DNA from: Chrysomallon squamiferum
Lineage: Eukaryota > Animalia > Mollusca
Direction of reading: 5' to 3'
Length of the DNA: 64,000 nucleotides
NCBI GenBank assembly: GCA_012295275.1
Contig: CM022671.1
Coordinates: forward strand, 6,386,001-6,450,000
Shown: in pieces, positions 2,275 to 32,101 of the stretch
Layout of the letters: the number at the start of each line of letters is the position of its first letter
Numbering within the stretch: the stretch's first letter is position 1
The notes under the pieces: generated by a model
Database searches by the model: none
Told to the model about the DNA's origin: nothing
The model's input: the letters and a program-made list of their open reading frames with translations, nothing else
Position numbers and translations under genes: made by a program

Positions 2275-3265
2275 ATGAGAGTCGTGCTGGTTCTAGCAGC
2301 TGTCGTCTGTGTAGTTGTCACAAAGAGTGATGTTGAGCCTGCCAGAAAAGGTGATCGTTTGACTTGGCGTCGTGTATGGCTGATAGTTAAAGATGTCGTT
2401 AAGAAAACAGCCGTGGATATAGTGATTAACGCTCTTCAAAAAAGAAGTAAGAAACAAATTTTACGTAGTGAATATATACGTCAAACTACAACCAAAAGTA
2501 CTACAACTACTACAACAACAGCTTATATTACTAGACTAATATAAATAATTCGTTTTAATATTGTACACAAATTTTAAAGTTGTGGATACGATTTGCAAAT
2601 GACACCAGTAAAATGCATAATAGAAGACTAGGCACCTAAATGAGGTGTATATTAAATTACTTTTTAAAAAATAACAAATAGTATTGAAGTACTTTTTTTT
2701 ATTTTTTTATTTACAATTATTATATTTTATTATTTATTTATTTATTATTATTATATTTTATTATTTATTTATTTATTATTATTATTATTATTGTTATTTT
2801 TTTTTTTTAACTTTTTTTTGCACTGTAGATCTGGATGAAATTGATGTGGACAATGATGGTGTGATAGACAAAGACGAATTGGAGGATATTTTAAGTAGTC
2901 GACAAGCAGACGAACTTCTGGAGTTTGCTGATCGTGATGGTGAAGATTTATTATTTAATGAAATTGTAAAATATTTTATTGATTTTAGTTAGTTAGTTTG
3001 TTAATTGTTTATGGTTTTTAAATATTTGCTTCTCTATGTATACATGTGTACACTCGTACATTGATATGGATTAATTTTAAAGTGTTTTCAACATACAAAC
3101 ACACACACACGCAGATACATACATACATATATACATACATACAAACATATATATATCTGAACTTGAAAATGTTTGATGGAGAGATTTACTAATTTACTTG
3201 TAGCTGACGAGATTGTCACCAAGGAAGAACTGCAGCAAATTCTCGATGAATTCAAACATCAGTAG
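2275..3265 (+). CDS. Copy 1: secreted cationic peptide / two-EF-hand precursor, 114 aa; join(2275..2446,2829..2939,3204..3265)
   Basis: Manual splicing of two phase-1 GT-AG introns gives MRVVLVLAAVVCVVVTKSDVEPARKGDRLTWRRVWLIVKDVVKKTAVDIVINALQKR-NLDEIDVDNDGVIDKDELEDILSSRQADELLEFADRD-ADEIVTKEELQQILDEFKHQ*. A 3'UTR exon starts at 3516 with AATAAA at 3580. Confidence 0.85.
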
Positions 3266-3662
3266 ATGTAAGTTTGTAATAAAATACACGTTTAAATATT
3301 AATTAATCTTATAATTATATTAATAACTAAAAAAAGTGTTTAACTGCAAAAAAAATCTATTAAAATTAAAATGTATGTATGTATAAATATGGATTTTAAC
3401 GTCGTGTTTATAACCCATGAACCAAATATATTTATGAATTCGTGTTAAATATTTAAATGACACACAAGTAGAAATCTGAACAAAGAAAGTCAACATATTA
3501 TTTTCTTTGTTTCAGACTCACCCAAGTTTGACCAGCAAAATGTCCAAACAGAAGACGGAGATGTGAACACATTGAAAACAATAAAGATAAAACCTCTCTA
3601 AAATCAGTTTTAAGTTTTTATTTCATCTTATTTTATTTTATTTTATTTTAAATATTTATTTA

Positions 3663-3729
<67 letters not shown>

Positions 3730-4484
3730 TTATCAGTACTAATGTCGGTTAATAAAGTTAACAGCTGGTGCTTTTGTTTACAGAAGTTAATTTTCAAGTG
3801 GGGTAGTTGATAACTATTTTAAATAAATTATCAAACAAAGAAATACATAAGAAAACAAATAAACAAACAAACAAATAAATACATGAGAAAATAGATGTAT
3901 AAATAAATTAAAAGTTAAATAAATAAATAAATAACATGAAAATGAGAAGATTTTAGTAGGAATTAAGATGAATTTGATCAAACTAATCTAAAACAGTAAA
4001 CAGAACAGTTTATACAAGTTCAGCTAAGAAACTAGTGTAAGAGGGAATCATGTCACAACTTAGATTTACCAGTCTGTTTGAATCATATCAAGAACCATAA
4101 CCCATGACATTCGGTATTGTCTTTGCACGTATATTTGAGATGGCCAGCTGTTTATGTAGATGTCAAAAATAATCAAATCGAGTTTACAGTGACTTGATAA
4201 ACACACTGAGGTTGATTAGACATTTGCTTTAACGAACGAAAACTAAAAATCGTAAATTTTGCTGATACTTATAATTTTAGAATCGAACGTTTTGATACAA
4301 AATTGTAATGTTTTTAATATGTTATTGGGAAAGGTGATGCACAAATCCTATTTCCATCTTATTTGAGAAAAATTGTCACCGAGGTAACAAATGGAGCTGA
4401 AATGTGTACGTGTAGTCACCTTTCTTTCCTCTGTCTGCTTTAACATCACCATCCTTTACTGTCTTCTTTTCTTTCGTTTCAAAG

Positions 4485-4710
4485 ATGCCGGCTTTTTGTA
4501 GCATTTGTGGACGCATTTTTACAAATATAATAGACAGACACATTTGTATATTTTATATGAACTGTCGTGTGAAGAGAAGAATATGTTCCATGATCTTTCA
4601 TACACCAGTCGTGTTGCCCTGGTTCAGAAGGGGAAAAAAGGACAGTGATAATCACGTCCATTGGAGAGGGTCGATTCTGTTAACTTTGCACATCAGGCGA
4701 GAAAATTCCA
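4485..4710 (-). mobile_element. Degraded tRNA-headed SINE co-amplified with the array units (also ~465-600, ~8310-8505, ~14810-14990, ~29180-29275)
   Basis: catgatctttcatacaccagtcgtgttgccctgg...gtccattggagagggtcgattc resembles, from memory, the reverse complement of a conserved-core mollusc SINE (CACGGCCTTTGTTACACCAGTCGTGGAGCACTGG...GTCCACC...GGATCGATCC). The family assignment (Meta/MESC or V/RUDI type) was not verified by search. Confidence 0.55.
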
Positions 4711-4820
4711 TTTCAGTTTGTATACCATCACTACTCACCGATTTAATATATCAAATTATATTACAAAATGATGTTCATTTGTTACTACTAATACTACTAC
4801 TTTTATTAATTTCATAATGA

Positions 4821-4882
<62 letters not shown>

Positions 4883-5579
4883 TTATCAGGTGATGAAATT
4901 TTTTTAACAAATGTAAACTGCTCAGATCAAACCAGACTACGAGCCTGGGATTGACTACGATAGAAAAAATCGTTACGCAGAAAGAAAACGATGGAAGGAG
5001 GATTATCAACCTGAATAGCAGAAATTTAGATTTAATTTTAGTGTGAATAACAAACATGATTAATTTACTGTAATCATGTAAATTTAAATCAGCTATATTC
5101 ATGAAACAAACACTTGTGTGATTAACATAGTAAAATTTGAGTAAAAACTTGTATTTGTTTCTTTTTTATTTTATAAAATATCTAAATTTACGCATAAACT
5201 TGACAACTTACAGCTTAGATCCTCAATCTGCAGAAATAAAGTCTTGTCCCTAGTTATCTCCCCTCTCAAAAAGCGTTCATTGCTGGTTTTATTGGCTGTC
5301 ATCTTGTGGTTTTACAGATTGTTGGTGATGTCCCACTTAACACAACAAGCAGAACTGAGTGATAATGTAAAAAACAATTGTGTGTGGTGTGTGAAAAAAG
5401 AAGGAAATAAAACCCCATTAACACCACAAGTTTAACTAACTGTTACTTCCTGGATTAATATTCAGTGATGCTAAAAGATAAACACTTCATGTCTGCACCA
5501 TGCCTGAAATATAAATCTGTCCAGGACATAACAGATAATTAACACAACATTAATTAAACAAACAGTAATGATAAAATGA

Positions 5580-5684
5580 ATCCTGTGTGTGAAATCCTGG
5601 TGAAGTTTAAAATAAATAGAGTCTCTTAGCTACATTTTAAACCATTTACTGTTGTGAGACTGCAGAGAAAACAATAATGTAAGT
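5580..5684 (+). promoter_or_regulatory. Putative promoter and non-coding exon 1 of copy 2
   Basis: Same block, with the GATA/TGATGTAAAT segment deleted; donor GTAAGT at 5679. Confidence 0.55.
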
Positions 5685-6230
5685 ACAACTATTTTTATCT
5701 ATAAAACTTACTGTTATTTTATTATTTATTTATCTATTTATTCTGAAACAGAGAGCATTTATGAATTATATCTTTAATATTTGTGTTCGCTGTCTCTGCT
5801 ATGTTCAGTCATTCTATCTTTAAGTAATTCAAAAGTTTATTTATTTGTCTGTTTATTACTGTGTAATTCATGACATTTACGGATACTATTTTTATGAATA
5901 ATAATAATAATAATAATAATGAAAAATTAGTAATTATAGAGATTAATTAAAATAACAAAATCTGGCATACTTGTTAAAAAAACAACAAAAAACAAATGTT
6001 AAGGTGAAGATTTCTTTCCTTTCGAGTTAGCTCCCTCTATGAAGTGCGTTATGATTTCCTCCCATTTTCACATTCCATTACAGTCATCAACTTACGACCA
6101 GGTTACGTTCCAACTATTTAGTCGTAAGTTGGATATCTGTTATTTGTATGCATGTAATCACGTTATCTCAACCTTAAGTCATCCATGTTTTTTGTTTTTT
6201 AGTAAACCCTTTAATTGGTTTAAATCAACG

Positions 6231-6968
6231 ATGAGAGTCGTGCTGGTTCTAGCAGTTGTCGTCGCTATAGCTGTCACAAACAGTGATGCTGGTTGGAGAT
6301 TACGTCGTGCATGGCGCAGAGCCAAACCTTACGTTATTGAAGCAGCCAAGCAGATCCTCTTTAAAATTATTGGAAAAAGAAGTAATAAACAAGTTTTAAT
6401 TAGTGAATATAAACTCAGACTACAAAAATAAATACTACTACAACAACAGCTACTACTACTAGAATAATAATCAAAAAAAAAGTTGTGGATACGATTTGCA
6501 AATGACACCAGTAAAACGCACAATCGAAGACTAGGCACCTACATCACGTGCATATTAAATTACATTTTAAAAAGATAACAAAAAGCATCGCAGTATTTAT
6601 TTATTTATTTACTTAATTATGTATTTATTTATTATTATTATTTTTTTATTTTTTATTTTATAATTATTATTATTATTTTTTTGCTTTGTAGGTGTGAATG
6701 AAATTGATGCGAACAATGACGGTGTGATAGACAAAGACGAAATCGAGGCTATTCTAAGTAGCCGAGAAGCAGACGAACTTCTGGAGTTTGTTGATCGTGA
6801 TGGTAAAGATTAATTTTTTAATAAAATTTTTAATTATTATTATTATTATTTTTTTTTAGTTAGTTAGTTTGTGTGTTTTTTTTTTTTTTTAAATATTTGT
6901 TTGTTTGTGTTTATATGTGTACATGGACATGGATTAATTTTAAAGTACTTCCAAGTACACACACACAC

Positions 6969-7010
<42 letters not shown>

Positions 7011-7139
7011 GAATTTGAAAATGTTTGGTGGATACATTTAGTAATTTCTCTAATTTTGTTTACTAATTTACGTGTAGCTGACGAGATTGTCACCAAGGAA
7101 GAACTGCAGCAAATCCTCGATGAATTAGAACATCAATAG
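6231..7139 (+). CDS. Copy 2: precursor, 107 aa; join(6231..6381,6692..6802,7078..7139); predicted mature peptide GWRLRRAWRRAKPYVIEAAKQILFKII-amide
   Basis: Signal MRVVLVLAVVVAIAVTNSDA, then peptide, GKR, and SVNEIDANNDGVIDKDEIEAILSSREADELLEFVDRDADEIVTKEELQQILDELEHQ*. Splice sites are canonical. 3'UTR exon from 7390, AATAAA at 7454. Confidence 0.92.
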
Positions 7140-9859
7140 TTGTAAGTTTGTAATAAAATACGTTCAAATATAAATTAATCTTATAATTATATTAATAACT
7201 AAGTAAACTGTTTAGCTGCAAAATATCTATTAAAAATAGACGTTTGTAAGCATATATAAATATGAATTTTAATGTCATGTTTATAACCGATGCACTAAAT
7301 ATATTTATGAATTCCTGTTAAATATTTAAATCACATTACAAACAGAAATCTGAACACAGAAAGTCAATACACTATTTTCTCTGTTTCAGACTCACCCAAG
7401 TTTGACCAGCAAAATGTCCAAACAGAAGACGGAGATGTGAACACATTGAAAACAATAAAGATGAAACCTCTCTAAAATTCAATTTTAAGCTTTTGTTTCA
7501 TCTTATTTTATTTTATTTTAAATATTTATTTAATTTATTATTATTACTATTATTATTATTATTATTATTATTATTTTATCAATACTCATGTCGGTTAATA
7601 AAGTTAACAGCTGGTGCGTTTGTGTAATAGAAATACATTTTCAAGTGGAGTAGTTGATAAATATTTTAAATAATAAACAAACAAACAAACAAATACATAA
7701 TAAATAAACACATTAAAAAAAAAAAAAAAAAAAAAAAATAAATAAATAACCAAACGAAGAAAAAGAAAGAAAGAAAGAAAGAAACCATTAAATAATAAAT
7801 ACAAAAAATAAACAAACAAACGAGGTAACATGAAGATGAAAAGATTTTGTAGAAATTAACTTAAATTCGATCAAACTAATCTGAAAAAGTATACAGAACA
7901 GTTTACACAAGTTCAGCTAAGAAACTGGTGTAAGAGAGAATCATTTCACAACTTAGTCTGTTTACCAAGAACCATAACTCATGCCATTCCGTATAATTGG
8001 ACCAATTGTCTTTGCACGTAGATTTGAGATGGCCAAAATAATCAAGTTTATAGTGACTTGATAAACACATTGAGGTTGATTAGACATTGCTTTTAGTGGA
8101 CGAAAACTAAAAATCGTAAATTTTGTTGATATTTAAATTTTAGAATCTGACGTTTTGATACAATATTTGTAATGTATTTAATATGTTATTGGGAAAAGTG
8201 ATGCACAAATCCTCTTTCCACCTTATTTTGGAAAAAACTGTCATCCTTGTTTTCTCTCTGTGCTTTAACATCACCATCTTTTACTGTCTTCTTTTCTTTC
8301 GTTTCAAAGATGCTGGCTTTTTGTAGCATTTGTGGACGCTATTTACCAATATAGTACACAGACACATTTGTAAATTTTATATAAACTGTCGTATGAAGAG
8401 GAAAGTATGTCCCATGATCTTTCATACACCAGTCGCGTTGGCCTGGTTCAGATGGGAAGAAAAGGACAATGATAATCACGTCCACTGGAGAGGGTCGATT
8501 AACTGTGCAAAAATTTCATTTCAGTTTGTATACCATGACAACTCGCCCATTCAAACTTTAATACATCAAATTTGATTACAAAATGGGTCATTTATTACTA
8601 CTACTACAATTTCTATTATTAATATTAATATTAATATTATTATTATCATCAGGTAATGAAAACAAAAATTAACATTTTTTTTTGTAAAATTCGAGGCGTT
8701 CCTGGATGTATTTTAAGAGGATTTAACTCTAGACGAACCTGCTCAGATCATACCAGAATACTAGCGTTTGTTTGACAGGTAAATTTCTGTAAGTTATATT
8801 CATAAGACAAACACTTATGTGATTAACAGATAAAATTTGAGTAAGAATTTATATTAGTTTTTTTATTTTATAAAACAACTAAACTCAACAACTTACAGCT
8901 TAGGTTCTCAATCTGCAGAAATAAACTTTTGTTCCTAGTTATCCCCCCTCTCGAGAATTGACCATTGCTGGTTTTATTGTTTGTCATCATGTGGTTATAA
9001 CAGATTGTTAATATTTTTATTTTATAAAACATACGTAAAACCAGTTCCATATTTAACCACAAACCATACTAGCTTCAGCTCATCCCCCCCGCAAAAAACA
9101 ACAAAAAAACAACAAAACAAAACAGCAACAACAAAACAACAAAAAGAGTAAAAACAAGACGAAATTCAATTCACTTTTGACAACTAGAATTAGTACCTGC
9201 ATAGCGTATTTCTCAAAACAAAGTACTCAAGTTGTAAAGAACTGAGGTGTGAAATTTGAGATCGCTGTTTTACATACGAAATATAATTCTAATTAAACTA
9301 GGAACAACAATAAAAATAATATTTAAATTTAAATTTAAGTGTGAAATTTGGGGACAATAATAACCACAACAAAATTTAAATTGTACTGCACTGAATGTGT
9401 TTTTTTTTTTGTTTTTTTTTTTTAGTCTGTTCAAACGTAAATTAATCATTAGTCATTTAAATACCTTCTTCTCCTACTTAGTTTTAAGAACGTTTGAAAA
9501 CATTTTACTCTAATTTAATACAAGAAATTATTTTACATTTCAATCTTTAATTGAGAAAGATAAAGTTTTTTAAAAAAATGATCATTTCTGGTTTTATTCT
9601 TTGACATCTTATGGCGTTTACAGATTGTTAATGTTGTTCTACTTCTAACAAAAATCAGCAGAATAATCGATAAACTGTCACGTGTGTGAACAAAAAACAA
9701 AAAACATTAGCATCACGAATCAATCTAATTGTGTTACATCCTGGATGAATAGTCAGTCATGCTAAAAGAATACAAAAATCGTGTCTGCACCGTGCCTAAA
9801 CTGCACATGTGTCCAGGACGTAACAGATAATTAACACAACATTATTTAAACAAATTATG

Positions 9860-10006
9860 ATGATAAGATGAGATAATGATGTAAATACAAAGAGTGCATT
9901 AATCCAATGTGTGAAATCCTGGTGAAGTTTAAAATAAATAGAGTCCTTTAGCTACATTTTAGACCATTTACTGTTGTAAGACTGCAGTGAAAACAACAAT
10001 GTAAGT
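9860..10006 (+). promoter_or_regulatory. Putative promoter and non-coding exon 1 of copy 3
   Basis: Same conserved block; donor GTAAGT at 10001. Confidence 0.55.
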
Positions 10007-10047
10007 ACAACTCTTTTAATATATCAAGTCTGTTATTGTTATCAGTT

Positions 10048-10086
<39 letters not shown>

Positions 10087-10164
10087 TGCTGAAATAAAGA
10101 ACATTTATGAATTATATCTTAAATATGTTTGTTTACTTCACTGTATATCTGTTATTTGTGTGTA

Positions 10165-11835
10165 TTATTGATGTTATAATATCGAAGTTTCCAGTTCTGG
10201 AATTAACACTGATCATTTTGTTAATACTGATATTAAAACCAGTATTAACAAATGTCCTCTTTTTTTTTTTGGTCCTCTATAATTTTAAAAATCAATAATT
10301 ATTTCAAGTCAGTAAATTATATCCTTATTGATAATAAAGATTTTTCAAACAAAAACAAATCGTAATTTAAAAAAAAAATCATGACCTTACTAATACAAGA
10401 GAAATAAAAGAATCTTTAGTCAAAAGCAAACTAATCAGATTATTTTTCAATTTGAAATACAGATTTTAGAAAGCAAAGGCTGTTGAGTGAATTTTCAGAA
10501 AGATCTGATCTCAACCCTGCTCCTTAAAGCATCCTTTCAGATTTTACACTTGTAGGCTTAATCGAAAGTAATGCATTACAGAGCTTGTCTAGATTTTCTA
10601 TTCTTTTTAAAGACACTTCAAAGCTGTTCAGTTCCATGCTGACATCAAAAGTTGCCGAAAGTCCTTTTCTCAGTTGAATCGTCTCTACCTTTTCTATTTC
10701 TTGTAAATATTCTGCAAGCAATGGGTTATTATTTTCCCTTTTCCCAGCTGCTGTTCCTGTTGTATCTTTAGAACAGCCAGGTTTTTGTTGCCTTACACTT
10801 TATTTTCCCAAATGTACAATGTTTTCAGAGAAAACTCTTTTAAAATGTCTGCCTGCAATTTTCATGTGAATAACTTTAGAAGGAGGTGAAGAAAGATCAT
10901 CATCCTGATTTTCCAATGTTCTAGAGTCATGAAGGTATTTAAGTAAACCTACAATTTCTGTTTGTTTTCTTGAGGAATAATAATGAATCAGGTTTTCTTT
11001 TAATTAATTTGATAGTGGGGTATTCTCCTCTGAAAGTTTTTCTTTATAATGATCTTGAAAGCGGTTAGTAGTGTTCGATCTCTTGAACACAGTCCTTTAA
11101 GAGTTATCTAAAAGGGAGGAAGCATATTTCTGACGTCTTCCAAAATTGCCCAGTCTTTTGATGTGATTGCCTAAGAGGAATGAATTACTCTCAATGCTTT
11201 GTGGATACATTGTTTCAGCTTAAGAAATCTTTCTGTCATGCGTAAAAGACTATTCCATCTTGTCTTGCAATCTAGGATTAGCTTCAGTTCTTTTCCGTTA
11301 AACTGTTGTTGTTGTTGTTTTGGGTGGGAGTTTATAAATCTTGGAGTTTCTCGAAAATTTCGACAGATTCTTCTAACTTTATTTATTATAGTATAGAAGC
11401 TATCTTGAAGTAATGAAACGCTGAGATATGTACGCAGTTCTAGAAGAAAGAAATCAAATTTTTTTACTTCATCTGCTTCGTCTTTGCTAATTACTTTAAA
11501 AGAAAATAATATCTTTACAAAATTAAAATCTGTGCCGCTTGTTGCTGGAGGCCAGACAAAAGAGTAGTATGTGTCATACAGGGTCAGGACATCACTGTAC
11601 GTGGCGCAGTTCCCAGTTGTGTTAAAACGTTTCTATTCACTTTAATACGAACTTTTTATATTCGCATAATTATAGCTTTATTGTTTAATACATAATCTTT
11701 CCTACAAGGAAAATGACTGCACTATTTGTGGTGTGTGTGTGTGTGCGTGTCTTTGTGAAATATAAGGAAATATAAGCATATTGTCTTATCTGTATTGATA
11801 CTAATTTCTTATATTTGGTATCGGTATTCACCCTA
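10165..11835 (-). mobile_element. Degraded hAT-superfamily DNA transposon inserted in intron 1 of copy 3
   Basis: The minus strand encodes ELKLILDCKTRWNSLLRMTERFLKLK (~11200-11295; hAT TRWNS motif) and ALLSIKPTSVKSER...SLNSLCFLK (hAT C-terminal dimerisation region), broken by frameshifts. One end reads TAGGGTGAATACCGATACC (11835-11817). Absent from the paralogous introns. Confidence 0.85.
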
Positions 11836-11949
11836 GTATGTATATAACACGTTATCTCAACCTTAAGTCATCCATGTTCTTTTTTTTCTTTCTATCTTTC
11901 TTTTTTTTTTTTTTTTTTTAGTAATCCGTTTAATTAATTTAAATCAAAG

Positions 11950-12782
11950 ATGAGAGTCGTGCTAGTTCTAGCAATTGTCGTCGCTGTAGCTGTCACAAAC
12001 AGTGACGCTAAATGGAGATTTCGTCGTGTATGGCAGGAAGCCAAACCTTACGTTATCAAAACAGCCATCGGTATCGCCATTGGAGCTCTTGGAAAAAGAA
12101 GTAACATATAAATTTTAAGTAGTGAATAAGTTTTAAAAAGTCAAACTACAACAACAATAACTGCTACCGCAATAACTACAACATCAACATCTGGTACCAC
12201 TACTACATCTACAACAACAACTACTACTACTAGAATAATAATAATATTCGTTTTAATTTTGTAAAACATTTGTATACAGATTTGCAAATGATACGAATAA
12301 AATGCACAATCGAACACTAGAAGACGTGTGTATTAAATTACATTAAAAAAACAAACAAATATTAAAGTATATTTTTTTCTTCTTTTGTAGGTGTGGATGA
12401 AATTGATGCGAACAATGACGGTGAGATAGACAAAGACGAAATCGAGGCTATTCTAAGTAGTCGACAAGCAGACGAACTTCTGCAGTTTGCTGATCGTGAT
12501 GGTAAAGATTTATTTTTTAATCAAATTTTTTTATTTTTGTTTTGTTTTATTTCATTTTGTTAGTTAGTAAGATGTCTGTTTAAATAATTATTTTTCTGCG
12601 TTTGTATGTATACACTCGTACATTTTTATTGTTTCGTTTTAAAGAGCTTTCAAGAACAATTTTTTTTTTTAAATTTTTTTTTTAGTTTGTTAGTTAGTTT
12701 ATTTCTTTGACTGTTTGTGTATACATGTGTAGACTCGTGCACTGATGTAGATTCACGTTGAAGTGTTTCCAAGCACACACAC

Positions 12783-12815
<33 letters not shown>

Positions 12816-12967
12816 GATACATACATACATATGGACAATAATACATACATATATGATGGATACATTTAGTAATTTCTCTAACTTTGTTTACTAATTTACG
12901 TGTAGCTGACGAGATTGTCACCAAGGAAGAACTGCAGCAAATCTTCGATGAATTCAAACATCAGTAG
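11950..12967 (+). CDS. Copy 3: precursor, 107 aa; join(11950..12100,12391..12501,12906..12967); predicted mature peptide KWRFRRVWQEAKPYVIKTAIGIAIGAL-amide
   Basis: Absent from the ORF track; read manually. MRVVLVLAIVVAVAVTNSDA / peptide / GKR / SVDEIDANNDGEIDKDEIEAILSSRQADELLQFADRDADEIVTKEELQQIFDEFKHQ*. Splice sites are canonical; the downstream 3'UTR exon region is scrambled. Confidence 0.9.
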
Positions 12968-14992: not shown

Positions 14993-15055
<63 letters not shown>

Positions 15056-17295: not shown

Positions 17296-18079
17296 ATGAG
17301 ACTCGTGTTGGTTCTAGCAGTTGTCGTCGCTGTAGCTGTCACAAACAGTGATGCTTGGAGATTACGTCGTGCATGGCGCAGAGTTGTTCGTTACATTTTG
17401 AAACCACGGATCCATTACTACCCTTGGACATATATTCCTGCTGGAAAAAGAAGTATAAACAAGTTTTATATAGTGAATATAAACATCGAAAAACAACAAC
17501 AAGTACTACTGCTACTGCAACTACTACTACTTCAACATCTATTAATACAACTACAACAAACAACAAAAGTTACTGCTAGAATAATAATAAATCGTTTTAA
17601 TTTGGTATTTTTATTATTATTATTAAATGGCGTATGTATTATTATTATTATTATTATTTTTATTATTTTATTATTTTTATTATTTTTTTATTTTATTTTA
17701 CTTTATTTATTTTTAATTTTTATTATTATTATTGTTATTATTATTATTTATTATTTTTAATTTTTTTTAATTTTTTTTAGGTGTGGATGAAATTGATGTG
17801 AACAATGACGGTGTGATAGACAAAGACGAAATCGAGGCTATTCTAAGTAGTCGAGAAGCAGACGAACTTCTGCAGTTTGCTGATCGTGATGGTGAAGATT
17901 TATTATTTTATTTTCATTTTTATTTATATTTTATTTTTATTTATATTTACATACATACATATATATGATGGATACATTTTTTAAATTCTCTAATTTTGTT
18001 TTCTAATTTACGTGTAGCTGACGAGATTGTCACCAAGGAAGAATTGCAGAAAATCCTCGATGAATTAGAACATCAATAG
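17296..18079 (+). CDS. Copy 4: precursor, 109 aa; join(17296..17452,17781..17891,18018..18079); predicted mature peptide WRLRRAWRRVVRYILKPRIHYYPWTYIPA-amide
   Basis: MRLVLVLAVVVAVAVTNSDA / peptide / GKR / SVDEIDVNNDGVIDKDEIEAILSSREADELLQFADRDADEIVTKEELQKILDELEHQ*. The first coding donor is the weaker GTATAA. 3'UTR exon from 18362, AATAAA at 18426. Confidence 0.9.
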
Positions 18080-19381: not shown

Positions 19382-19416
<35 letters not shown>

Positions 19417-19769: not shown

Positions 19770-19919
19770 TGATGAAAAGATGAGATAATGGTGTAAATTA
19801 CAAAGAATGTGTAAATCCAAAGTGTGAAATCCTGGTGAAGTTTAAAATAAATAGAGTCGCTTAGCTGCATTTTAAACCATTTATTGTTGTAAGACGGCAG
19901 AGAAAACAACAATGTAAGT
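19770..19919 (+). promoter_or_regulatory. Putative promoter and non-coding exon 1 of copy 5
   Basis: Same conserved block; donor GTAAGT at 19914. Confidence 0.5.
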
Positions 19920-20448: not shown

Positions 20449-20494
<46 letters not shown>

Positions 20495-20501
20495 TTTTTT
20501 T

Positions 20502-20537
<36 letters not shown>

Positions 20538-20587
20538 CTAAACCCTTTTAGTTACAAAGTGATTTATTTTATTTATTTATTTATCAC

Positions 20588-21246
20588 TGAGACGTCGTTC
20601 TAGTTTTGTTGTCGGAGAATCAAACCAGTGATGCGTTATTAGAGTCGTGGCATCAACTCAAACCTTTCGTTATTAAAGCAGGCATCCAATACCCAGTTTC
20701 GGTTGTTGGAAAAAGAAGTAATAAACACGTTTTAAAATGTACTGAAAATAAACGACATCAAAATCAACAAAAACAAGTATTATTAATACAACAACAACTA
20801 GTATTACTACAATAATAATAATTATGTTTTAATTTTGTAAGATCTCTGCATACGATTTGAAAATGACACCAATAAAATCCACAATCGAAGATTACAGGGA
20901 CACACATGTGCATATTAAATAACATTTTAAAAAACAACATATTTATTTTTTTTTTTTTTTTTTTTAGGTATGGATGAAATTGATGTGAACAATGACGGTG
21001 TGATAGACAAAGACGAAATCGAGGCTATTCTAAGTAGTCGACAAGCAGACGAACTTCTGCAGTTTGCTGATCGTGATGGTGAAGATTTATTTTTTTGTTT
21101 TGTTTTGTTTTATTTCATTTTGTTAGTTAATAAGATGTCTGTTTAATTAATTATTTTTCTGTGTTTGTATATAACCACTCGTACATTTTTATTGTTTCAT
21201 TTTAAAGAGCTTTCAAGTACAATGTATCCACACACACACACACACA

Positions 21247-21285
<39 letters not shown>

Positions 21286-21456
21286 ATAGAGAGATAAACA
21301 CACAGAGAGAGAGCACATACACACATATTTAACTTGAAAATATTTGATGATACTGTTATAATTTCTCTAACATTGTTTATTAATTTACGTGTAGCTGATG
21401 AGATTGTCACCACGGAAGAACTACAGGAAACCCTCGATGAATTCAAACATCAATAG
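20588..21456 (+). pseudogene. Copy 5: signal-peptide region disrupted (no ATG, indels); EF-hand exons 20968..21078 and 21395..21456 intact
   Basis: ctgagacgtcgttctagttttgttgtcgg is a damaged version of atgagagtcgtgctggttctagcagttgtcg. It is followed by SDA-LLESWHQLKPFVIKAGIQYPVSVV-GKR with a donor at 20718, then SMDEIDVNNDGVIDKDE...DRD-ADEIVTTEELQETLDEFKHQ*. The damage could be an assembly error. Confidence 0.7.
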
Positions 21457-21811
21457 TTGTAAGTTTGTAATAAAATATTAATATTAATTAATCATATAAC
21501 TATATTAATAAGTAGGGAAACTGTGTACTTAAAGAAGAAAGCAGATAAAAATTGCGTTTGTTTGTATGTATGTATAACCCATGCACTAAATATATTTATG
21601 AATTCCTGTTAAATATTTAAATGACATTACAAATAGAAATCTGAACACAGAAAGTCAGTACACTATTTTCTTTGTTTCAGACTCACCCAAGTTTGACCAG
21701 CAAAATGTCCAGAGAGAAGACGGAGACGTGGATACATTGAAAACAATAAAGATGAAACCTGTTTTATTTTATTTTATTGTTTGTTTGTTTATTTAATCAT
21801 CATCATCATCA

Positions 21812-21885
<74 letters not shown>

Positions 21886-22351
21886 TTATCAAACAAACAA
21901 ATCAAACATACGAGATGACATGAAGATGAGAAGTTTTTTGTAGGAATTAACTTGAATTTGATCAAACTAATCTGAAGAAGTAAACAGAACAGTTTATACA
22001 AGTTCAGCTAAAAAAATGGTGTAAAAGAGAATCATTTCACAACTTAGATTTACCAGTCTGTTTAAATCAAATCAAGAACGGTAACCCATGCCATTCCTTC
22101 CGTGTAACTGGACGAGTTGTCTTTGCATGCAGGTTAGAGACAGCCACCTGTTTATACAGATGTCGATAAAACAGTCCGCCACAGAGACTGGATCCTGCAA
22201 ACCTTCCATATTAGACGAGTTTTATTCCATCCCAGAATCGTCTACCACGTCAAATTTGTTTGATTTAAAAATGATTGGCTGTTATTTTAGTATATAATAA
22301 CATTTTATTTGAAAAAAAAAAATTTTTTTACTATGTAAAGAGATACGGTTG

Positions 22352-22395
<44 letters not shown>

Positions 22396-23165
22396 CGGTT
22401 CAGCTCGATTGATAGAATAAGTGCTTATGGTAGATTGATTCATTTATTATTATTATTATTATTATTATTTTATCACGTGACAAATCGTCTAAACGTCATC
22501 ACAAATTTGTTTTTTTTTTTTTTTTTTTTTTTTTTTTGAAAAATAACACTTCTGTCATTTATGTCACTGTAATATTTTGTTTTCATTATTTCAGAATATT
22601 AAAAAAAAAATAAATAAAAAAAAAAAAATAAATAAAAAAAAATCGTGAAAAACGAAAACGTTCGATTATGCTGAATAGATTATTTAAGTGGAACTTTCAG
22701 ACCTATCTCCTTTCACATTCTGCCTTGTCTTTTACAAATATCTCCGTATTTATTGTTTAATTGCCATTTGAAATGAAACGGTTCTGCCCGATTCGTGAAA
22801 AATAACCCCTTAGGAACGATAACTCTGTATGGTCGTCTGCAGTCGTAAACATCAAAATAATATTCACGAATGATAACCCTTACTCAGGAATTATCTCATG
22901 TTCATCTGTCAATTAAAACATAATATTTACTTTAATAAGTCTACCTCTATTAAGGTCTTCATAAAAATAACATTTTATTGGATAGATAATGCAAATTTGA
23001 TAAAGATTTCTCTTAGTATACGTTTTTGGGTCTTAAGGTTGACTTTAAAAATAACTTAAAAATAATTAAAAAACCCCATTAAATTCCGATATACGGAAAA
23101 TAATGGTTACTGAAAACTTTGAAATTCGATATCTTTTCGATTATTATAGATATCTTCAAAACTTA

Positions 23166-23198
<33 letters not shown>

Positions 23199-24129
23199 GG
23201 GATTGGTTTTCTTTTAATTGATATAGAATACATGTTCATTTAACAATTTAAAAATTGCATTTCTGCCATCCGTTCTCTTCATACCTTCTTCATCCATCCT
23301 TCATTTTATATACCTACCCCACCTCCTACTCAGAAGCAAGTCATGCTTTTGGATGTCACTGTTTGACTTCATAATGCATGCAAAAGAGGATGACAGGGTA
23401 CACACATGTGGATATCAATTTTATTTATTTATTTATTTATTAGCTGGGGAACTCACTATATATAATCTGTCGTTCACTGCTAACTCCCTGTATAACCAGA
23501 ATAATAATACATAACCAAATTGTAATTATAAACTTGATTCACTCGGACAATAACATTTGATTGATTTTTATGTTCTGTTTGCAGTTTTCACAGTGAAACA
23601 GAGTAAACTGCCCTTGGGATCAATATATATATATATATATAAAAATAAAAAAATAAAAAAAAAATAAAAAAAAAACTGAACGGAATACAACAGTCTTAAT
23701 ATGACAAATCAATTTAAGCTCATTAATATTTCTTCCTGTGTTTCTTATTTCAGGGTCGTGCATGAACTTTGGTGTACAGGGTTATAGTTTATTTAAAAAT
23801 GTATTATTCGATTTTGTCTGAAATATCAAAATATTTCTATAATATCTGAATAAGTAATGTTTTTATATATATATAAATATACATACATACATACATACAT
23901 ATATATATATTAATGATAGAGAAGAAGAAGAAAAACAAATAGCTGGATATAAAGACGATAAATAAAATTTTAAAGCCAGTGTAAAACAAATAGCTGGATA
24001 TAAAGAACATGATAAATTTTGTTTGTCGAAAAATTTTAAAATTTACAGTTCTTTCTTTACAACAATTCAAAAAATTTTCATCTGAAAACCACTGGATGAC
24101 GTCAATTTTTGTAAAAGTTTCACGTATTT

Positions 24130-24800
24130 TTTTAAATAAGAGAATTTAATTCGTTCCGTTAAATCCACAAATTTTTTGAACAAAATATTGTATGAATAAA
24201 AATAAAAAAATATTGTATGTAAAAGAGGATGTAAAGACATAAACTGGTTTTGTAAAGTGTACAGTGTTAATGTTTCTCCATCTTTTCATAGACAGAGGTC
24301 CGCAGCTTAGAAATTTTTTAACGCCTTTGGCTGGAGTTATAAAGCTTTTACCGACTCCTTCTGCTTCAGTATGGTACATATCGTAAAAGTACCACGGTCG
24401 TATTGACTAGCCATATTGACTACACGCACACTTCGCTCGTGGGTTTTTCTATGATTTCATGCTTTAATTCAACGGACATCATCCATTTCTTCGTCTCAGC
24501 ACTGTCCTCTGCACTCACTTTCTTAGGATCCATGGAAATTTGAAAAAATGCTGTACAAAACGCGAGGACAACACAACAGATGTGCTTCCGAGGCGAGATA
24601 ACCACGTGAAGCAAACAAGTGAGACGCGTGACGCTGGGCGGATGTTGTGTTGTTCGTTGCGCCAACAAAGCGGCGGCGTTTGTAAAGCTCGCTCGTAACT
24701 CGGATTTTGGCTCCCAACTCAAAGCAAAAAATCGACAGGGCGACTGCTCGTAACTCGAAAAACTCGTAAGTTGGAGCACTCGTAACTCGAGGTACCACTG
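24130..24800 (-). mobile_element. Tigger/pogo-like DNA transposon 5' fragment
   Basis: Terminus TA|CAGTGGTACCTCGAGTTACGAG at 24800 with repeated GAGTTACGAG subterminal motifs, followed by MDPKKVSAEDSAETKKWMMSVELKHEIIEK (CENP-B/Tigger N-terminal HTH start), then frameshifts. Absent from the paralogous segment near 34520. Confidence 0.85.
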
Positions 24801-25242
24801 TATAACAAAATGTTAAATGTAATATTAATCGCAGACAGAAACGTTAGTTTTGTTATTTGATCCCAAAGATAAGTTTAATTCCCAATGCAGACAGCTGTTA
24901 GGTTTTGTTCATTTTGTTTATCAGATTTTTTTATTTGTTAATTCTGTTTGATTTGTTTTTTCGTTTATTAATATGATTCGATATTTTATTTTGTTTCGTT
25001 CGTTTATTTATTATTTGTTTGTTTGTTTTGTTTATATATTTATAACATAATTTATAAATCTTTTTTTTTTCCTTTCTATTTGTTTGTTTGTTTCATTATT
25101 TAAATATAAAACAATTTTGTTGTTTTGTATTCATTTGATGTATGTTTTATAATTTTAGTTTTCCTGTCTGCATTAAATATTAACTTTCATTTGGTTATGT
25201 TTGAATTTCTGTGTCATGTTGTTTGCCAGCAACCATTATTAA

Positions 25243-25302
<60 letters not shown>

Positions 25303-25676
25303 TAAAATTAAATAAATAAATAAACAAAAATAGAAAAATGCATTTTGTATATCATGTAAATAGAATTGCCAAAAAAAAAAAAAAAATAATAATAATAATA
25401 AATAAATAAATAAAATAATAATAACGAGAAAGTTGTCCATCAAAGTTTATTGTTTTAATAATCAGTCAAGTGATTCAGTAAATAGATTGTTATTTAGATA
25501 AAACACACACACACGCAGACACACACACAAACACGTATATGTAATATTTATAAAAATTCATATATGTTATGTAGACACAGTGTAAACACACACACACACA
25601 CACACATATATGTAAGGTAGAAACAAGTATCTGTATGTGTATGTGTGTGTATGTGTGTTTCTGTGTTATGTAGACG

Positions 25677-26095
25677 GAGTACACAAATAACAGAACTTAC
25701 ACAACTAACAAGACGTACACAAATAACAAGACTTACACAAATAACAGAACTTACACAAATAACAAGACTTACACACGTTACAGAACTTAGACAAATAACA
25801 AGACTTTACACAAATAACAGAACTTACACAAATAACAAGACTTACACATGTTACAGAACTTAGACAAACAACAAGACTTACACAAATAACAGAACTTACA
25901 CAAATAACAAGACTTACACACGTTACAGAACTTAGACAAATAACAAGACTTACACATGTTACAGAACTTAGACAAACAACAAGACTTACACAAATAACAG
26001 AACTTACACAAATAACAAGACTTACACACGTTACAGAACTTAGACAAATAACAAGACTTACACAACTAACAGGACGTACACAAATAGCAAGACTC
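25677..26095. repeat. 18-bp minisatellite (acacaaataacaagactt / acacaaataacagaactt variants)
   Basis: About 23 directly visible units with higher-order alternation of variants. Confidence 0.95.
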
Positions 26096-26341
26096 ATCAG
26101 TCATTTAAACACGTTGTTATAATACTTAGTGTTAAGAACGTTTGAGATTATTTTACTCTAATTTAATATAAGAAATTATTTTATTTCGATCTTTAATTTA
26201 CAAAAGATAAAGTTTTTTAAAACGTGCTCAATGCTGGTTTTATACTTTGTCATCTTCTGGCGTTTACAGATTGTTAATGTTTTACTTCTAACAAAATCAG
26301 CAGCATTGAGTTATAATCGAAAAACTGTTACAAGTGCATAT

Positions 26342-26372
<31 letters not shown>

Positions 26373-26514
26373 TAGCATCACAAATCAAGCTATTTGTGTT
26401 ACATCCTGGATTAATTTCAGTGATGCTAAAAGATAACCATTTTACTTCCGCACCATGCCAGATCTGAACAGGATGTTACGGAAAGTTAATACGATATTAA
26501 TTAAAGAAATAATG

Positions 26515-26661
26515 ATGAAAAGATGAGATAATGCTGTAAATACAAAGAGAGTGTAAATCCTGTGTGTGAAATCCTGGTGAAGTTTAAAATAAATAGAGTC
26601 GCTTAGCTGCATTTTAAACCATTTACTGTTGTAAAACTGCAGAGAAAACAACAATGTAAGT
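26515..26661 (+). promoter_or_regulatory. Putative promoter and non-coding exon 1 of copy 6
   Basis: Same conserved block; donor GTAAGT at 26656. Confidence 0.55.
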
Positions 26662-27162
26662 AAAACTATTTATATATATAAAACTTACTATTATTTATTT
26701 ATTTATTCTGAAATAAAGACAATTTAGGAATTTTCTCTTAAATGTTTTTCTTTAGCGTTTTTTATTTTTATTATTATTTTTTTTAAACGATTACTGAATA
26801 AGTCATCAAATTTATAGGTACTACATTCTTTGAATAATAATTAACATTTTTAAACAAATTCAAAAAATTTACGATTAATTATATTCACAAAAGCTGGATT
26901 ATCTGTTAAAATGAAGACATTTCCCATCCCGAGTTAGCTCCCTTTGCAAAGCGTCCTCTGATTTCCACCCATTTTCATATTTCATTACAGTCATCGACTT
27001 ACGATCACGTTCCGTTCTCACTAATAGATCGTAACCAGATATCTATTATTTGTCTGTATATAATGACGTTATTTCAACCTTACGTCATTCGTATCTCTTT
27101 TGTTGTGTTTCTTTTTTTTTTTTCCTTTTTTCAGTGAACTCTTTAATTAATTTCAAGCAAAG

Positions 27163-27508
27163 ATGAGAGTCGTACTGGTTCTAGCAGTTGTCGTCGCTGT
27201 TGCTGTCTCAAACAGTGTTGCTTGGAGACTAGGGCGCGTACTCAAAACTGCAGTTATTAGTGGAGGTGTCCATTACCTTCTTGGAAAACGAAGTAATAAA
27301 CAGATTTTAAGTAGTGAATATAAACGTCATCTATTACTAGTACTACAACTACAGCAACAACTACTACAACTAATATAATAATAATAAATCGTTTTATTTT
27401 TTGTAAAATTTTGTAAAAGTTCTGGATTCGATTTGCAAATAACACCAGTAAAAGGCACAATCGAAGACCTCGCTCCTAAATGGCGTCTATATTAAATATT
27501 TATTATTA

Positions 27509-27580
<72 letters not shown>

Positions 27581-28089
27581 TTTATTTTATTTCATTACTA
27601 TTATTTTTTTTTTTTATTTTTTTTTTTTTTTTTTTTTTGTAGGTGTAGATGAACTTGATTTGAACAATGACGGTGTGATAGACCAAGACGAAATCGAGGC
27701 TATTCTAAGTAGTCGACAAGCAGACGAACTTCTGCAGTTTGCTGATCGTGATGGTGAAGATTTATTTATTTTTAATTTTAATTTAATTTAATTTTATTTT
27801 ATTTCATTTTAATTACTTAGTTAGTTAGTTTGTTTGTTTGTCTATTTACTTAACTGTTTGTCTGTGTATCCATGTGTACATTTGTACTTTGATATGGATT
27901 CATTTTAAAGTGTTTCCAAGTATAGCACACACACACACTCACACACACACACACACATCAGAACTCGATAATATTTGATGCATATATTTAGTAATTTCTC
28001 TGATATTGTTTACTAATTTACGAGTAGCTGATGATATTGTCACCAAGGAAGAACTGCAGCAAATTATCGATGAATTCAAACGTCACTAG
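27163..28089 (+). CDS. Copy 6: precursor, 100 aa; join(27163..27292,27643..27753,28028..28089); predicted mature peptide WRLGRVLKTAVISGGVHYLL-amide
   Basis: MRVVLVLAVVVAVAVSNSVA / peptide / GKR / SVDELDLNNDGVIDQDEIEAILSSRQADELLQFADRDADDIVTKEELQQIIDEFKRH*. Splice sites are canonical. 3'UTR exon from 28518, AATAAA at 28582. Confidence 0.9.
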
Positions 28090-29394
28090 TGGTAAGTTTG
28101 TAATAAAATACACTTTCAAATATTAATTAATCATATAATTATATTACTAAGTTGTTAAACTGCAGCAAATATCAGTAATAAAATACACGTTCAAATATTA
28201 ATTAATCATATAATTATATTAATAATTTGTTAAACTGCAGCAAACATCAGTAGTTGTAAGTTTGTAATAAAATACACGTTCAAATATTAATTAATCATAT
28301 AATTATATTAATAAGTAGGGAAACTGTTTAATTACAAAAGGTTAGTTACAGTTGCGTTTGCATGTATGTATATAAGTATGTTTAAATTTGGACTGTAATC
28401 TCAAGTTTATATCGTATACACTAAATGCGTTAGAAATAGAAATCTATACACGGAAAGTCAGTACACTATTTTTTTCATTTTCTATTTTTCATTTATTTTT
28501 TTTTGTTTTGGTTTCAGGCTCATCCAAGTTTGACCAGCAAAATGTCTAAACAGAAGTCCGAGATGTCATCACATTGAAAACAATAAAGATAAAATCTCTC
28601 TAATTCCAATTGGTTTTGTTTTTTTTCATTTTAATCTAATTTAATTTAGTTTAATTTAATTTAATTTAATGTAATTTTATAAATAAATAAATAAATAAAT
28701 AAATTTATTTATTTTTAATGTATATTTTATCGATACAATCAAATAAATAAACAAACAAACAAATGAGGTGACAAGAAAATAAGAAAAAAGGATTATTTGA
28801 CCAATGTCCACAATAATCCGAAAAAGTAAACACAACAGTTTAAAGAAGTTCAGCTAACACACTGGTATAAGAGAGAATCATTTCACAACTTAGATTTACC
28901 CGTCTGCGTACAAGAACCATAACCCATGACATTCCTTCCGCTTTTTTTTGGACCGACTGTCTTTGCACGTAGATTTCAGATGTCAGCAACATAATCAAAT
29001 CGAGTTTATAGTGACTTCATAAACACTTAAAGGTAGATTAGGGACGAAAACTAAAAATCGTAAATTTTGCTGAGATTTTAAATTTTCGAATCTGACGTTT
29101 TGATACAAAATTATAATGTGTCTAATATAATTACTGGGAAATGTGACACACAGTTCCTATTTCCATTCTATTTTGGATAAACTGGTTCAGAAAGGGGAAA
29201 AAAGGACAATAATAATCACGTCCATTGGAGAAGGTCGATTTTGCTAAATGTGCACATCAGGTGAGAAAATTCCATTTCAGTTTGTATATCATCACCACTC
29301 GCCCATTCCTACTTTAATATTTTATTACAAAATGGGATCATTTGTTATTACTACAACTACTATTTCTATTAATTTTATTATTATTATTATTATT

Positions 29395-29427
<33 letters not shown>

Positions 29428-29903
29428 GCTGCTGTTGTTATTATTTTATCAGGTGATGAAAATAAATTAACAAATATAAACTGACTTCTACAATTCATAG
29501 CTTAATGAGTTCCTGGATGCATTTCAAGAGGGGGTAACTCTGGAAGAACCTGCTCAGATTGTACCAGAATACCAGCCTGGGATTGACTACGACAGAAAAA
29601 ATCGTTACGCAGAAAGAAAACGATGGAAGGAGGATTATCAACCTGAATAGCAGAAATTTAGATTTAATTTTTGTGTGAATATCAAACATGATTAATTATA
29701 CTGTAATCAAGTAAATTTATATTAGTTTTAATCATGAGACAAAACAATGGTGTTTTAACGAGTAAAATTTGAGTAAAGATTTATTTTTGTTTTTGTTTTT
29801 TATTTTATAAAACACATGGTAAAACCAATATCATAATTTATGCATAAGCTAAAAGAATTACAGCTGAAAAAAAAAAAAAAAAAAATAATAATAATAATAA
29901 TAA

Positions 29904-29939
<36 letters not shown>

Positions 29940-30609
29940 AAAAATAATAATAATAATAAATGAATACAAAATGAAATTAACTTTAAATATTTTTAATAGC
30001 TAGAATGAGCACCTGCATAGCGCATAGCAAAACAAAGTACTCAAGTTGTAAAGATTTGAAGTGTGAAATTTGAGATCGCTGTTTTGCATACGAAATTTAA
30101 TTTTAATTAAACTAGTAACAACAATAAAAAATAGAATTTAAATTTAAAAGTAAGTGTCAAATTTGGGGATAACAGTAATAACAACAAAATTTAAATTGTA
30201 CTGGACTGAATGTTTTTTTTTTTTTTTTTAGACTGTTAAAACGTAAACTACTCATCAGTCATTTAAAACCTTGTTCTCCTACTTAGTGTTAAGAACGTTT
30301 GAAAACATTTTACTCTAATCTAATACAAATTAATATTTTACCATTCGATCTTTAATTGAGAATGATGAAGTTTGTGAAAAGTGATCATTTCTGGTTTTAT
30401 TCTGTGTCATCTTGTGGCGTTTTCAGATTATAGACGTTGTCCAGCTTCTAATATAATCATCAGAACAAAAAATAATCATTTGCCTCATTGTGTTATATCC
30501 AGGATTAATTCAGTGATGCTAAAAGATAAACATTTTACGTCCGCACCATGCCTGATCTGTACAGGGTGTTACGAAAAATTAATACGATATTAATTAAACA
30601 AATAATGAT

Positions 30610-30755
30610 GATAAGATGATATAAAAATATAATTATAAACAGTGTACGAATCCTGTGTGTGAAATCCTGGTGAAGTTTAAGATAAACAGAGTCGCTTAGA
30701 TGCATTTTAATCCATTTTTCTGTTTCACGACTGCAGAGAAAACAATAGTGTAAGT
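30610..30755 (+). promoter_or_regulatory. Putative promoter and non-coding exon 1 of copy 7 (more diverged)
   Basis: Same block with the TATA-like element altered (tttaagataaacag); donor GTAAGT at 30750. Confidence 0.45.
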
Positions 30756-31212
30756 ACAACTTTTTTAATATAAAAAGCTTATTATTAATTAATTAATTTA
30801 TTTATTTATTTATTTATTTAATTATTTAAAGTAATTCATGAAATATACGGATACTATTTATTCTGAATAATAAAAATAAAAGAGTAGTAATATTAGAGAT
30901 TAATTAAAATACCAAATCTGACTTACTTGTTAAAAAAAAAAAAAAAACCACGTAAAGATGAAGACGTTTTTCCTTCCGAGTGAAATCCCTTTATGAAGTG
31001 CACTACGACTTTCTCCAGTTTTCATATTGCATTACAGTCATCAGTTTACGATCGCGTTCCGTTCCGATTAATTGATCGTAAGTCGTATATCTATTATCCG
31101 TGTGTATATTATCACGTTATCTCAACCTTAAGTCATCCATATTTGTTTGTTCTTGCTGGCTTTTTTTTTTATTTTTTTTTTTAGTAAACGCTTTTATTGG
31201 TTTAGATCAAAG

Positions 31213-32101
31213 ATGAGAGTCGTGCTGGTTCTAGCAGTTGTCGTCGCTGTAGCTGTCACTAACAGTGATGCTTGAAGATTACGTCGCTTGTGAGTCAAAC
31301 GCACGGCTATTAAAACAGGCGCAATTCAAGCTATTGGAAAAAGAAGCACTAAACAAGTTTTAAGTAATGAATACGAGCATCAACAAGTACTGCCACTACT
31401 GCTACTACAACTACTACCACATACATATCTAGTACTACTACTACTACAACAACAAACTAGAATAAGAATAATAATTCGTTTCAATTTTGTAAAAATAAAA
31501 AAATGTGGATACGATTTGCAAATGACACCAGTACAATGCTCATTCGAAGACTAGGCACTTTTACATGACGTGTATATTAAATTACATTTTATAAAAATAA
31601 CGAACACTAAAGTAGGGATTTCATTTTATTTATAATTTCTTTTTTGTGTCTGTGTAGGTGTGAATGAAATTGATGTGAACAATGACGGTGTGGTAGACCA
31701 AGACGAAATCGAGGCTATTCTAAGTAGCCGAGAAGCAGACGAACTTCTGGAGTTTGTTGATCGTGATGGTGAAGATTTATTATTTTATTTTGTTTTTATT
31801 ATTTTGTTTTTTTTTTATTTTAATTTTAGTTAATTAGTTAGTTAGTTTGTTAGCTTGTTTGTTTATTTCTTTAAGTCTTTGTTTGTCTGTGTATGTATGT
31901 GTACACTAGTACACTCATATGGATTCATTTCAAAGTACAGTACACACACACACACACACATATATAAAATCTGAACTGGAAAATGTTTGATGGATACATT
32001 TTATAAATGCTCTCACTTTGTTTTTTAATTTACTTGTAGCTGACAAGACCGTCACCATGGAAGAATTACATCAAACTCACGATGAATTCAAACATGAGTA
32101 G
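31213..32101 (+). pseudogene. Copy 7: two in-frame TGA codons in the peptide and a GT>GC donor; exons 31213..31345, 31658..31768, 32040..32101
   Basis: MRVVLVLAVVVAVAVTNSDA*RLRRL*VKRTAIKTGAIQAIGKR, with TGA at 31273 and 31291 and donor A|gcacta at 31346. The last exon has drifted to ADKTVTMEELHQTHDEFKHE*. Confidence 0.85.

Follow-up and report, generated by a model that had tools for sequence, protein, structure and literature searches.

What kind of gene product is encoded by the family of small genes repeated along the forward strand of the 64,000-nucleotide (nt) stretch of contig CM022671.1 analysed here (referred to as the window)? Between positions 2275 and 32101 (+) the window carries seven head-to-tail copies of one three-coding-exon gene with a spacing of 3.2–6.7 kb, the ATG of copy 1 lying at 2275 and the stop codon of copy 7 ending at 32101. 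The predicted proteins combine a leader, a Trp/Arg-rich peptide, a (G)KR site and an acidic tail with two EF-hand-type loops. Host-defence peptide precursors are the best reading of the family, a plausible one though unproven. We infer precursor cleavage, amidation and antimicrobial or membrane activity from the sequences described below.

A tandem array and a family transcript

Pattern scans and open reading frame (ORF) scans both gave the same seven copies, and the direct-repeat families D8, D9 and D10 have seven members each. No eighth copy was found on either strand when a spliced copy was compared with the whole window by tblastn. A first-pass annotation, made from the letters of the window, had described seven paralogues between these positions. 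All seven could be located, yet they are not all functional genes: five are intact and encode proteins of 100–114 amino acids (aa), and copies 5 and 7 are pseudogenes. Two segments ahead of copy 1 match the spacers between copies, so that the array may extend beyond the upstream edge of the window.

Exon 1 starts with the ATG and ends one base beyond the K-R codons, exon 2 has 111 nt in all seven copies, and exon 3 has 62 nt including the TAG stop. Introns 1 and 2 are both in phase 1, and intron 1 begins one base after K-R in every copy (7/7). In the intact copies intron 1 is 290–382 nt long and intron 2 126–404 nt. The donor of intron 1 is GT in 6/7 copies and GC in copy 7, and the exon-2 acceptor (AG) and the intron-2 donor (GT) are found in all seven. 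An AG acceptor of exon 3 was identified by pattern in six copies and was read by eye in copy 7. The poly(A) signal AATAAA lies 13 nt past the stop in 6/7 copies and reads AGTAAA in copy 7. The exons have a GC content of 0.435 compared to 0.214 for the introns; the window as a whole (0.287) is AT-rich and has many microsatellites. Upstream of the ATG there is a conserved block, with a TATA-like box ≈95 nt from the start in four of the six aligned copies and an AG 28 nt before the ATG in five of these six, copy 1 being without an AG there.

In copy 5 the ATG is missing and the leader has a degraded hydrophobic core; the frames of exons 2 and 3 are still open. The defects of copy 7 are two in-frame TGA codons, the GC donor, the AGTAAA sequence and a diverged loop 2. 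Each of the two TGA codons (exon 1, 31273–31299) takes the place of a TGG (Trp) codon of the intact paralogues; the two G-to-A changes affect the two Trp codons of the conserved W-R-x-R-R-x-W motif.

Transcripts were sought in three metatranscriptome runs, which contained about 0.01 of the words, the mapping covering exon 1–exon 2 of copy 3. A single contig of 281 nt, from one of the three runs (X4), matches 12042–12100 and 12391–12501 of copy 3. Its joint (12100 to 12391, GT..AG, 290 nt skipped) is exactly the predicted exon 1–exon 2 junction. The match reaches as far as the predicted exon-2 donor (12501), beyond which the contig has 105 nt more. This equals the length of exon 3 (62 nt) plus 43 nt of 3′ untranslated region running past AATAAA, and 43 nt past the stop is the expected distance for a poly(A) site soon after this signal. 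The contig has five mismatches to copy 3 on each side of the joint (91–95% identity) and is a paralogue or allele, not copy 3 itself. The contig shows transcription of a family member, with splicing that agrees with the gene model, and is silent on level and tissue. The first-pass annotation had named RNA junctions as a check, and the predicted splice was indeed seen in this one contig.

In run X1, unspliced contigs span the boundary of intron 1 and exon 2, and exon 2 is covered by no fewer than seven different contigs; the matches of runs X2 and X3 are only to the microsatellite in intron 1. Large numbers of contigs of all four runs, their depths summing to as much as 59,000, are drawn to this ACT-type microsatellite (12178–12246 of copy 3); the pile-up is a repeat artefact and not expression.

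Leader, variable peptide and EF-hand tail

The predicted leader of 20 residues starts with M-R, continues with about 13 hydrophobic residues and ends in T-N-S-D-A. The putative signal-cleavage site follows a rule of small residues at positions −3 and −1. The peptide that comes after the leader has 20–35 aa in the intact copies, is rich in Trp and Arg, and contains no Cys (5/5). It is followed by K-R in 7/7 copies. Six of these have G-K-R, and copy 1 has Q-K-R and hence no Gly for amidation. The charges counted by hand in the first-pass annotation for copies 2, 3, 4 and 6 (+7, +5, +8, and +3) were reproduced by the computed net charges, which are listed with the copies in Table 1.

AlphaFold2 was run without an alignment on two of the peptides. 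For copy 2 it gave one helix over residues 2–28 with a predicted local distance difference test (pLDDT) score of 82.8. The copy 4 peptide, which has a C-terminal half rich in Pro, Tyr and Trp, gave a helix over residues 2–15 followed by a low-confidence coil in the Pro/Tyr/Trp-rich part (pLDDT 63.8). No Pfam family was matched by exon 1 of copy 2 at E ≤ 1, and exon 1 of copy 4 matched only DUF6284 (E 0.2). Cecropin (PF00272) was considered, and exon 1 had no Pfam match to it in the copies scanned (2 and 4, i.e., 2/7). The nearest clusters to exon 1 in the protein atlas are insect cecropins (score 0.77), a weak lead only, and no PDB sequence match to the copy 2 peptide was found.

The tail has 57 aa and a net charge of −13 to −16 (−16 for copy 2). 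Loop 1 is a canonical 12-residue EF-hand loop, and a PROSITE-type pattern with ligands at positions 1, 3, 5, 9, and 12 and Gly at position 6 fits it in all seven copies. Loop 2 spans the second intron and fits the strict pattern in 2/7 copies, or in 7/7 with position 6 freed. The loop starts are 29 residues apart, and only about five residues lie between K-R and loop 1. The tail is accordingly described here as one canonical and one near-canonical EF-hand loop, as predicted from the pattern.

Within exon 2, 23 of 36 columns are invariant over the seven copies. Scanned against the Pfam models EF-hand_5, EF-hand_1, and EF-hand_6, exon 2 gave 20.6–25.6 bits (E 7.7e-6 to 3.2e-4; three of the seven copies scanned), the values for copy 2 being 22.2–25.6 bits (E 7.7e-6 to 1e-4). 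Its PDB matches are generic EF-hand proteins only, and in the protein atlas it falls near EF-hand clusters (0.90–0.93). Dockerin-type loop-helix repeats were tried as another description of the tail. No Pfam Dockerin match was obtained at E ≤ 1, and one PDB chain bearing a dockerin matched with E 0.11. A complex prediction with the copy 2 peptide plus GKR, the tail and two calcium (Ca) ions scored 0.06 and 0.10 against a mark of 0.34; the tail was split at the intron into two exon pieces, without the two split-codon residues, which makes it a poor domain model.

The gene regions were aligned with MAFFT, and divergence between the five intact copies was measured as mean column identity, with one-sided Mann–Whitney tests against noncoding DNA. 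In these segments, which are short and hard to align, identity is 0.594 for the peptide (81 columns, p 9e-6), 0.893 for the leader (60 columns, p 1e-5) and 0.922 for the tail (173 columns, p 2e-15), with 0.747 for the noncoding introns and flanks (840 columns). The 7 nt at the GKR site have an identity of 0.943, and pairwise alignments gave the same order of segments. The pooled ratio of nonsynonymous to synonymous divergence (dN/dS), subject to the same caveat, is highest in the peptide (1.28), followed by the leader (0.86) and the tail (0.70), and the pairs that align best in the peptide reach 3.6 (copies 2 and 3), 1.9 (2 and 4) and 2.1 (3 and 4). The peptide diverges faster than neutral-looking DNA, the leader and tail are conserved, and the (G)KR site falls exactly where the least conserved segment meets the most conserved one. 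The peptides had been called hypervariable in the first-pass annotation. This holds in so far as they are the fastest-diverging segment, but they are not wholly variable, as a W-R-x-R-R-x-W-like motif recurs at their N-termini in the alignment. Such a conservation pattern is of the defence-peptide or toxin type, as reported for myticalins, other antimicrobial peptides (AMPs) and toxins.

Proposed defence-peptide precursors and rival readings

Taken together, we lean slightly toward secreted precursors from which host-defence peptides are freed by cleavage at (G)KR, with an acidic EF-hand tail that neutralises or sorts the peptide until cleavage. The 20-residue leader would direct the precursor into the secretory pathway and would likely be cut after S-D-A. 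A convertase of the furin or prohormone convertase type could then cut after K-R, and where Gly is present a carboxypeptidase and an amidating enzyme would produce a peptide amidated at its C-terminus. The freed peptide might act on microbial membranes. Until cleavage it would likely be neutralised, packaged or sorted by the acidic tail.

Several observations weigh against this reading. The signal peptide and its cleavage site were judged by eye, from the hydrophobic core and the small residues at −3/−1. The peptide of copy 6 has a charge of only +3, and that of copy 1 has four acidic residues and is without Gly. The helical amphipathicity of the five peptides, measured as hydrophobic moment, is not above that of 2000 shuffles (fractions of shuffles reaching the observed value 0.25, 0.06, 0.31, 0.05, and 0.34). 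For the tail, the EF-hand scores fall just under the Pfam cut-offs of 25–25.9, and position 6 of loop 2 is Glu instead of Gly in 5/7 copies. The proportion of synonymous differences (pS) is 0.37 in the peptide against 0.10–0.12 elsewhere, a high value that may come partly from misalignment or gene conversion of the flanks and not from selection. No kappa-B-like site was found upstream of any copy, the window having one match, away from all the copies, where 0.46 are expected. Finally, the RNA support is a single low-depth metatranscriptome contig that is 91–95% identical to copy 3.

The tail is the conserved part of the protein and matches EF-hand models, which would also be expected if the family were uncleaved, secreted small Ca-binding proteins of the shell matrix, of mucus or for extracellular Ca-buffering. 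The basic N-terminal part would then be a variable surface-binding segment or an extension of the short entering helix of EF-hand 1. After K-R only ≈5 residues remain ahead of loop 1, and the Pfam match starts at profile position 6–7 of 29; a full entering helix would therefore need residues before K-R. Gastropods do have secreted acidic EF-hand shell-matrix proteins, such as abalone Hdh-SMP5 with 134 aa (PMC10741955). We still consider uncleaved proteins unlikely. The invariant K-R, with Gly before it in six of the seven copies, lies precisely where a segment changing faster than introns ends, a pattern that fits a processing site before a conserved propiece and would be unexpected for a structural helix. 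The juxtaposition of a peptide of +3 to +8 with a tail of −13 to −16 mirrors AMP precursors, and no significant small relative (35–116 aa) was found among annotated proteins. The conservation pattern also disfavours amidated signalling-peptide precursors (neuropeptide, hormone or pheromone) with the EF-hand tail as carrier or sorting domain. A prohormone classically consists of signal, peptide, G-K-R and carrier, neurophysin being the carrier domain for conopressin/vasopressin, and the Gly before K-R is kept in 6/7 copies here. However, signalling peptides are normally conserved and their spacers variable, and here the peptide is the fastest-evolving segment. With seven tandem paralogues including pseudogenes, and with peptides that are long, basic and Trp/Arg-rich, a signalling role seems improbable.

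Basic helical peptides can also lyse animal cells, and the products might be cytolytic or deterrent toxins directed against eukaryotes such as predators, competitors or parasites. Toxin families, too, are marked by a hypervariable mature part next to a conserved signal and pro-region (PMC5577615). Yet the window has no sign of a venom apparatus or of gland-specific expression, and the closest mollusc layouts are those of immune peptides, which makes toxins an unlikely alternative. There is also a small chance of a more elaborate mechanism. The two-loop tail would be a Ca-switched carrier or inhibitor that clasps the basic helix in the Ca-rich secretory pathway, by analogy to calmodulin-type lobes on basic amphipathic helices, and frees it after cleavage at K-R. 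The EF-hand module could have been recruited independently of, or be anciently shared with, mussel mytimycin. The host would be a relative of chemosymbiotic vent snails, and the array might then police symbionts as much as kill pathogens.

Setting of the array, relatives and known systems

The window is judged to belong to a gastropod because a copine-like ORF downstream of the array is 82% identical to a protein of Gigantopelta aegis (annotated as ‘RGLG2-like’). This agrees with the mollusc origin guessed in the first-pass annotation. The same ORF matches an ENA protein with 82%, Haliotis asinina with 73% and Patella caerulea with 70% identity. The coordinates of this ORF, of a mitochondrial carrier gene and of the seven copies are collected in Table 1.

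Table 1. Coordinates and properties of the features identified in the window.
Feature	Position (strand)	Exons or parts	State or evidence	Peptide (length, net charge, site)
Spacer-homologous segments	222..1678 (+)	222-434, 1442-1678	repeat families D19, D10	
Copy 1	2275..3265 (+)	2275-2446, 2829-2939, 3204-3265	intact, 114 aa	35 aa, +4, Q-K-R
Copy 2	6231..7139 (+)	6231-6381, 6692-6802, 7078-7139	intact, 107 aa	27 aa, +7, G-K-R
EF-hand loop 1, exiting helix, start of loop 2	6694..6801 (+)	in-frame exon 2, copy 2		
Poly(A) signal AATAAA, copy 2	7152..7157 (+)		13 nt past stop	
Copy 3	11950..12967 (+)	11950-12100, 12391-12501, 12906-12967	intact, 107 aa	27 aa, +5
Copy 4	17296..18079 (+)	17296-17452, 17781-17891, 18018-18079	intact, 109 aa	29 aa, +8
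Copy 5	20585..21456 (+)	exon-1 remnant to 20717; 20968-21078, 21395-21456	pseudogene	
Copy 6	27163..28089 (+)	27163-27292, 27643-27753, 28028-28089	intact, 100 aa	20 aa, +3
Copy 7	31213..32101 (+)	31213-31345, 31658-31768, 32040-32101	pseudogene	
Copine-like / vWA-type ORF	42756-43784 (+)	single exon, uninterrupted	342 aa; Pfam Copine E 2e-63	
Mitochondrial carrier gene	57142-57495, 57957-58244 (-)	two exons	Pfam Mito_carr E 8e-16, 1.5e-5	

The longer spacer between copies 2 and 3 has open frames of 153, 91, and 67 aa at 10524–11632 (−). A transposase remnant was suspected there from the look of the frames, and no Pfam family supports it. Between copies 5 and 6 lies an 18-nt minisatellite with at least 20 units (25625–26129, family D3), and a similar long open repeat frame is found at 35674–36015. 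A (GA)n/(TC)n microsatellite of ≈450 nt (37371–37844) coincides with a local peak in GC content and GC skew (36–38 kb). No Rfam families or tRNAs were found in the window.

Relatives of the encoded proteins were searched for with both exons. Among proteins of 36–116 aa, the exon-1 query shared words with one candidate and had no match at E ≤ 0.1, and the read-through ORF of copy 4 exon 2 gave no candidate among proteins of 35–114 aa, a range that does not include the mytimycin precursors (152 aa). When 1.84 billion representatives were searched exhaustively by HMMER, the exon-2 query had 740 matches at E ≤ 0.001. The best 150 of these have 3–10 matched stretches and 37–58% identity, and the seven sequences inspected among them are multi-repeat EF-hand proteins without this layout; single-loop proteins would rank below the best 150. 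No sequence similarity to myticalins was found with the exon-1 query (36–116 aa), the presence of myticalins in the database not being established. The lack of homologs is a weaker sign of novelty because the proteins of the source gastropod itself are absent from the database. Small three-exon genes like these may escape automatic annotation, and no annotated relative of similar size was found with the exon-1 and exon-2 queries. A gastropod family of this kind was not found in the literature searched, supplements aside.

A signal, a linear cationic peptide and an anionic C-terminal propiece make up the precursors of piscidin/pleurocidin, styelin/clavanin and the nematode cecropins. The family described here has the same order, but the propieces of those precursors are not EF-hand domains.

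The resemblance to the myticalins of mussels extends to the gene. As described in two sources (PMC5577615, PMC12294457), myticalin precursors have a conserved signal, a hypervariable Cys-free cationic peptide of 23–42 aa and an anionic C-terminal extension, with K-R and predicted carboxypeptidase and amidating steps in between. Signal, peptide and KR are encoded in one exon followed by a phase-1 intron, with a separate exon for the 5′ untranslated region. The genes form tandem clusters within a few kb, with pseudogenes caused by nonsense mutations or loss of the signal, and the activity of synthetic myticalin peptides has been confirmed (same sources). Our family shares with the myticalins and modiocalins the signal, the variable Cys-free cationic peptide (20–35 aa here), KR and the anionic extension, and also the single exon for signal, peptide and KR, the phase-1 intron, the tandem clustering and the pseudogenes. 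In contrast to our gastropod family, the myticalins are reported as Mytilida-only. According to PMC8004829 their extension has no defined structure; ours is conserved over 57 aa, has two EF-hand-type loops and is divided by a second phase-1 intron. Compared by description, the peptides are Trp/Arg-rich with a helical N-terminus here and mainly rich in Pro, Arg and Tyr there.

The EF-hand feature itself has a counterpart in mytimycin, an antifungal peptide of Mytilida. The first-pass annotation knew of no characterised AMP family with an EF-hand propiece, a claim that does not stand, since mytimycin has one. Its precursor (PMC8004829, PMC3210125) consists of a 23-aa signal, a 54-aa peptide with 12 Cys, a dibasic site and a 75-aa anionic extension with an EF-hand. 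This extension is highly conserved between variants, and its function is unknown according to the authors (PMC8004829). Signal, cationic peptide, dibasic site and conserved anionic EF-hand extension are thus common to both families as described. The mytimycin peptide, with its 12 Cys, is reported to be mostly under negative selection, unlike the Cys-free, linear and fast-evolving peptides found here. The extensions, which were compared by description, also differ, with 75 aa there and 57 aa with two loops here.

Both myticalins and mytimycin are described as restricted to Mytilida in these sources. Few molluscan defence peptides are linear and Cys-free, and those that are have been described there as mussel-restricted; their known range would be extended by a gastropod family built on the same gene plan. 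An EF-hand propiece has so far been reported only for the Cys-rich mytimycin. A second, unrelated class of peptide on an EF-hand tail makes the role of the tail testable, be it neutralising, sorting or Ca-dependent release, and the peptides are ready candidates for synthesis and assay. In all, the family combines the myticalin plan with a mytimycin-like EF-hand feature, in a gastropod.

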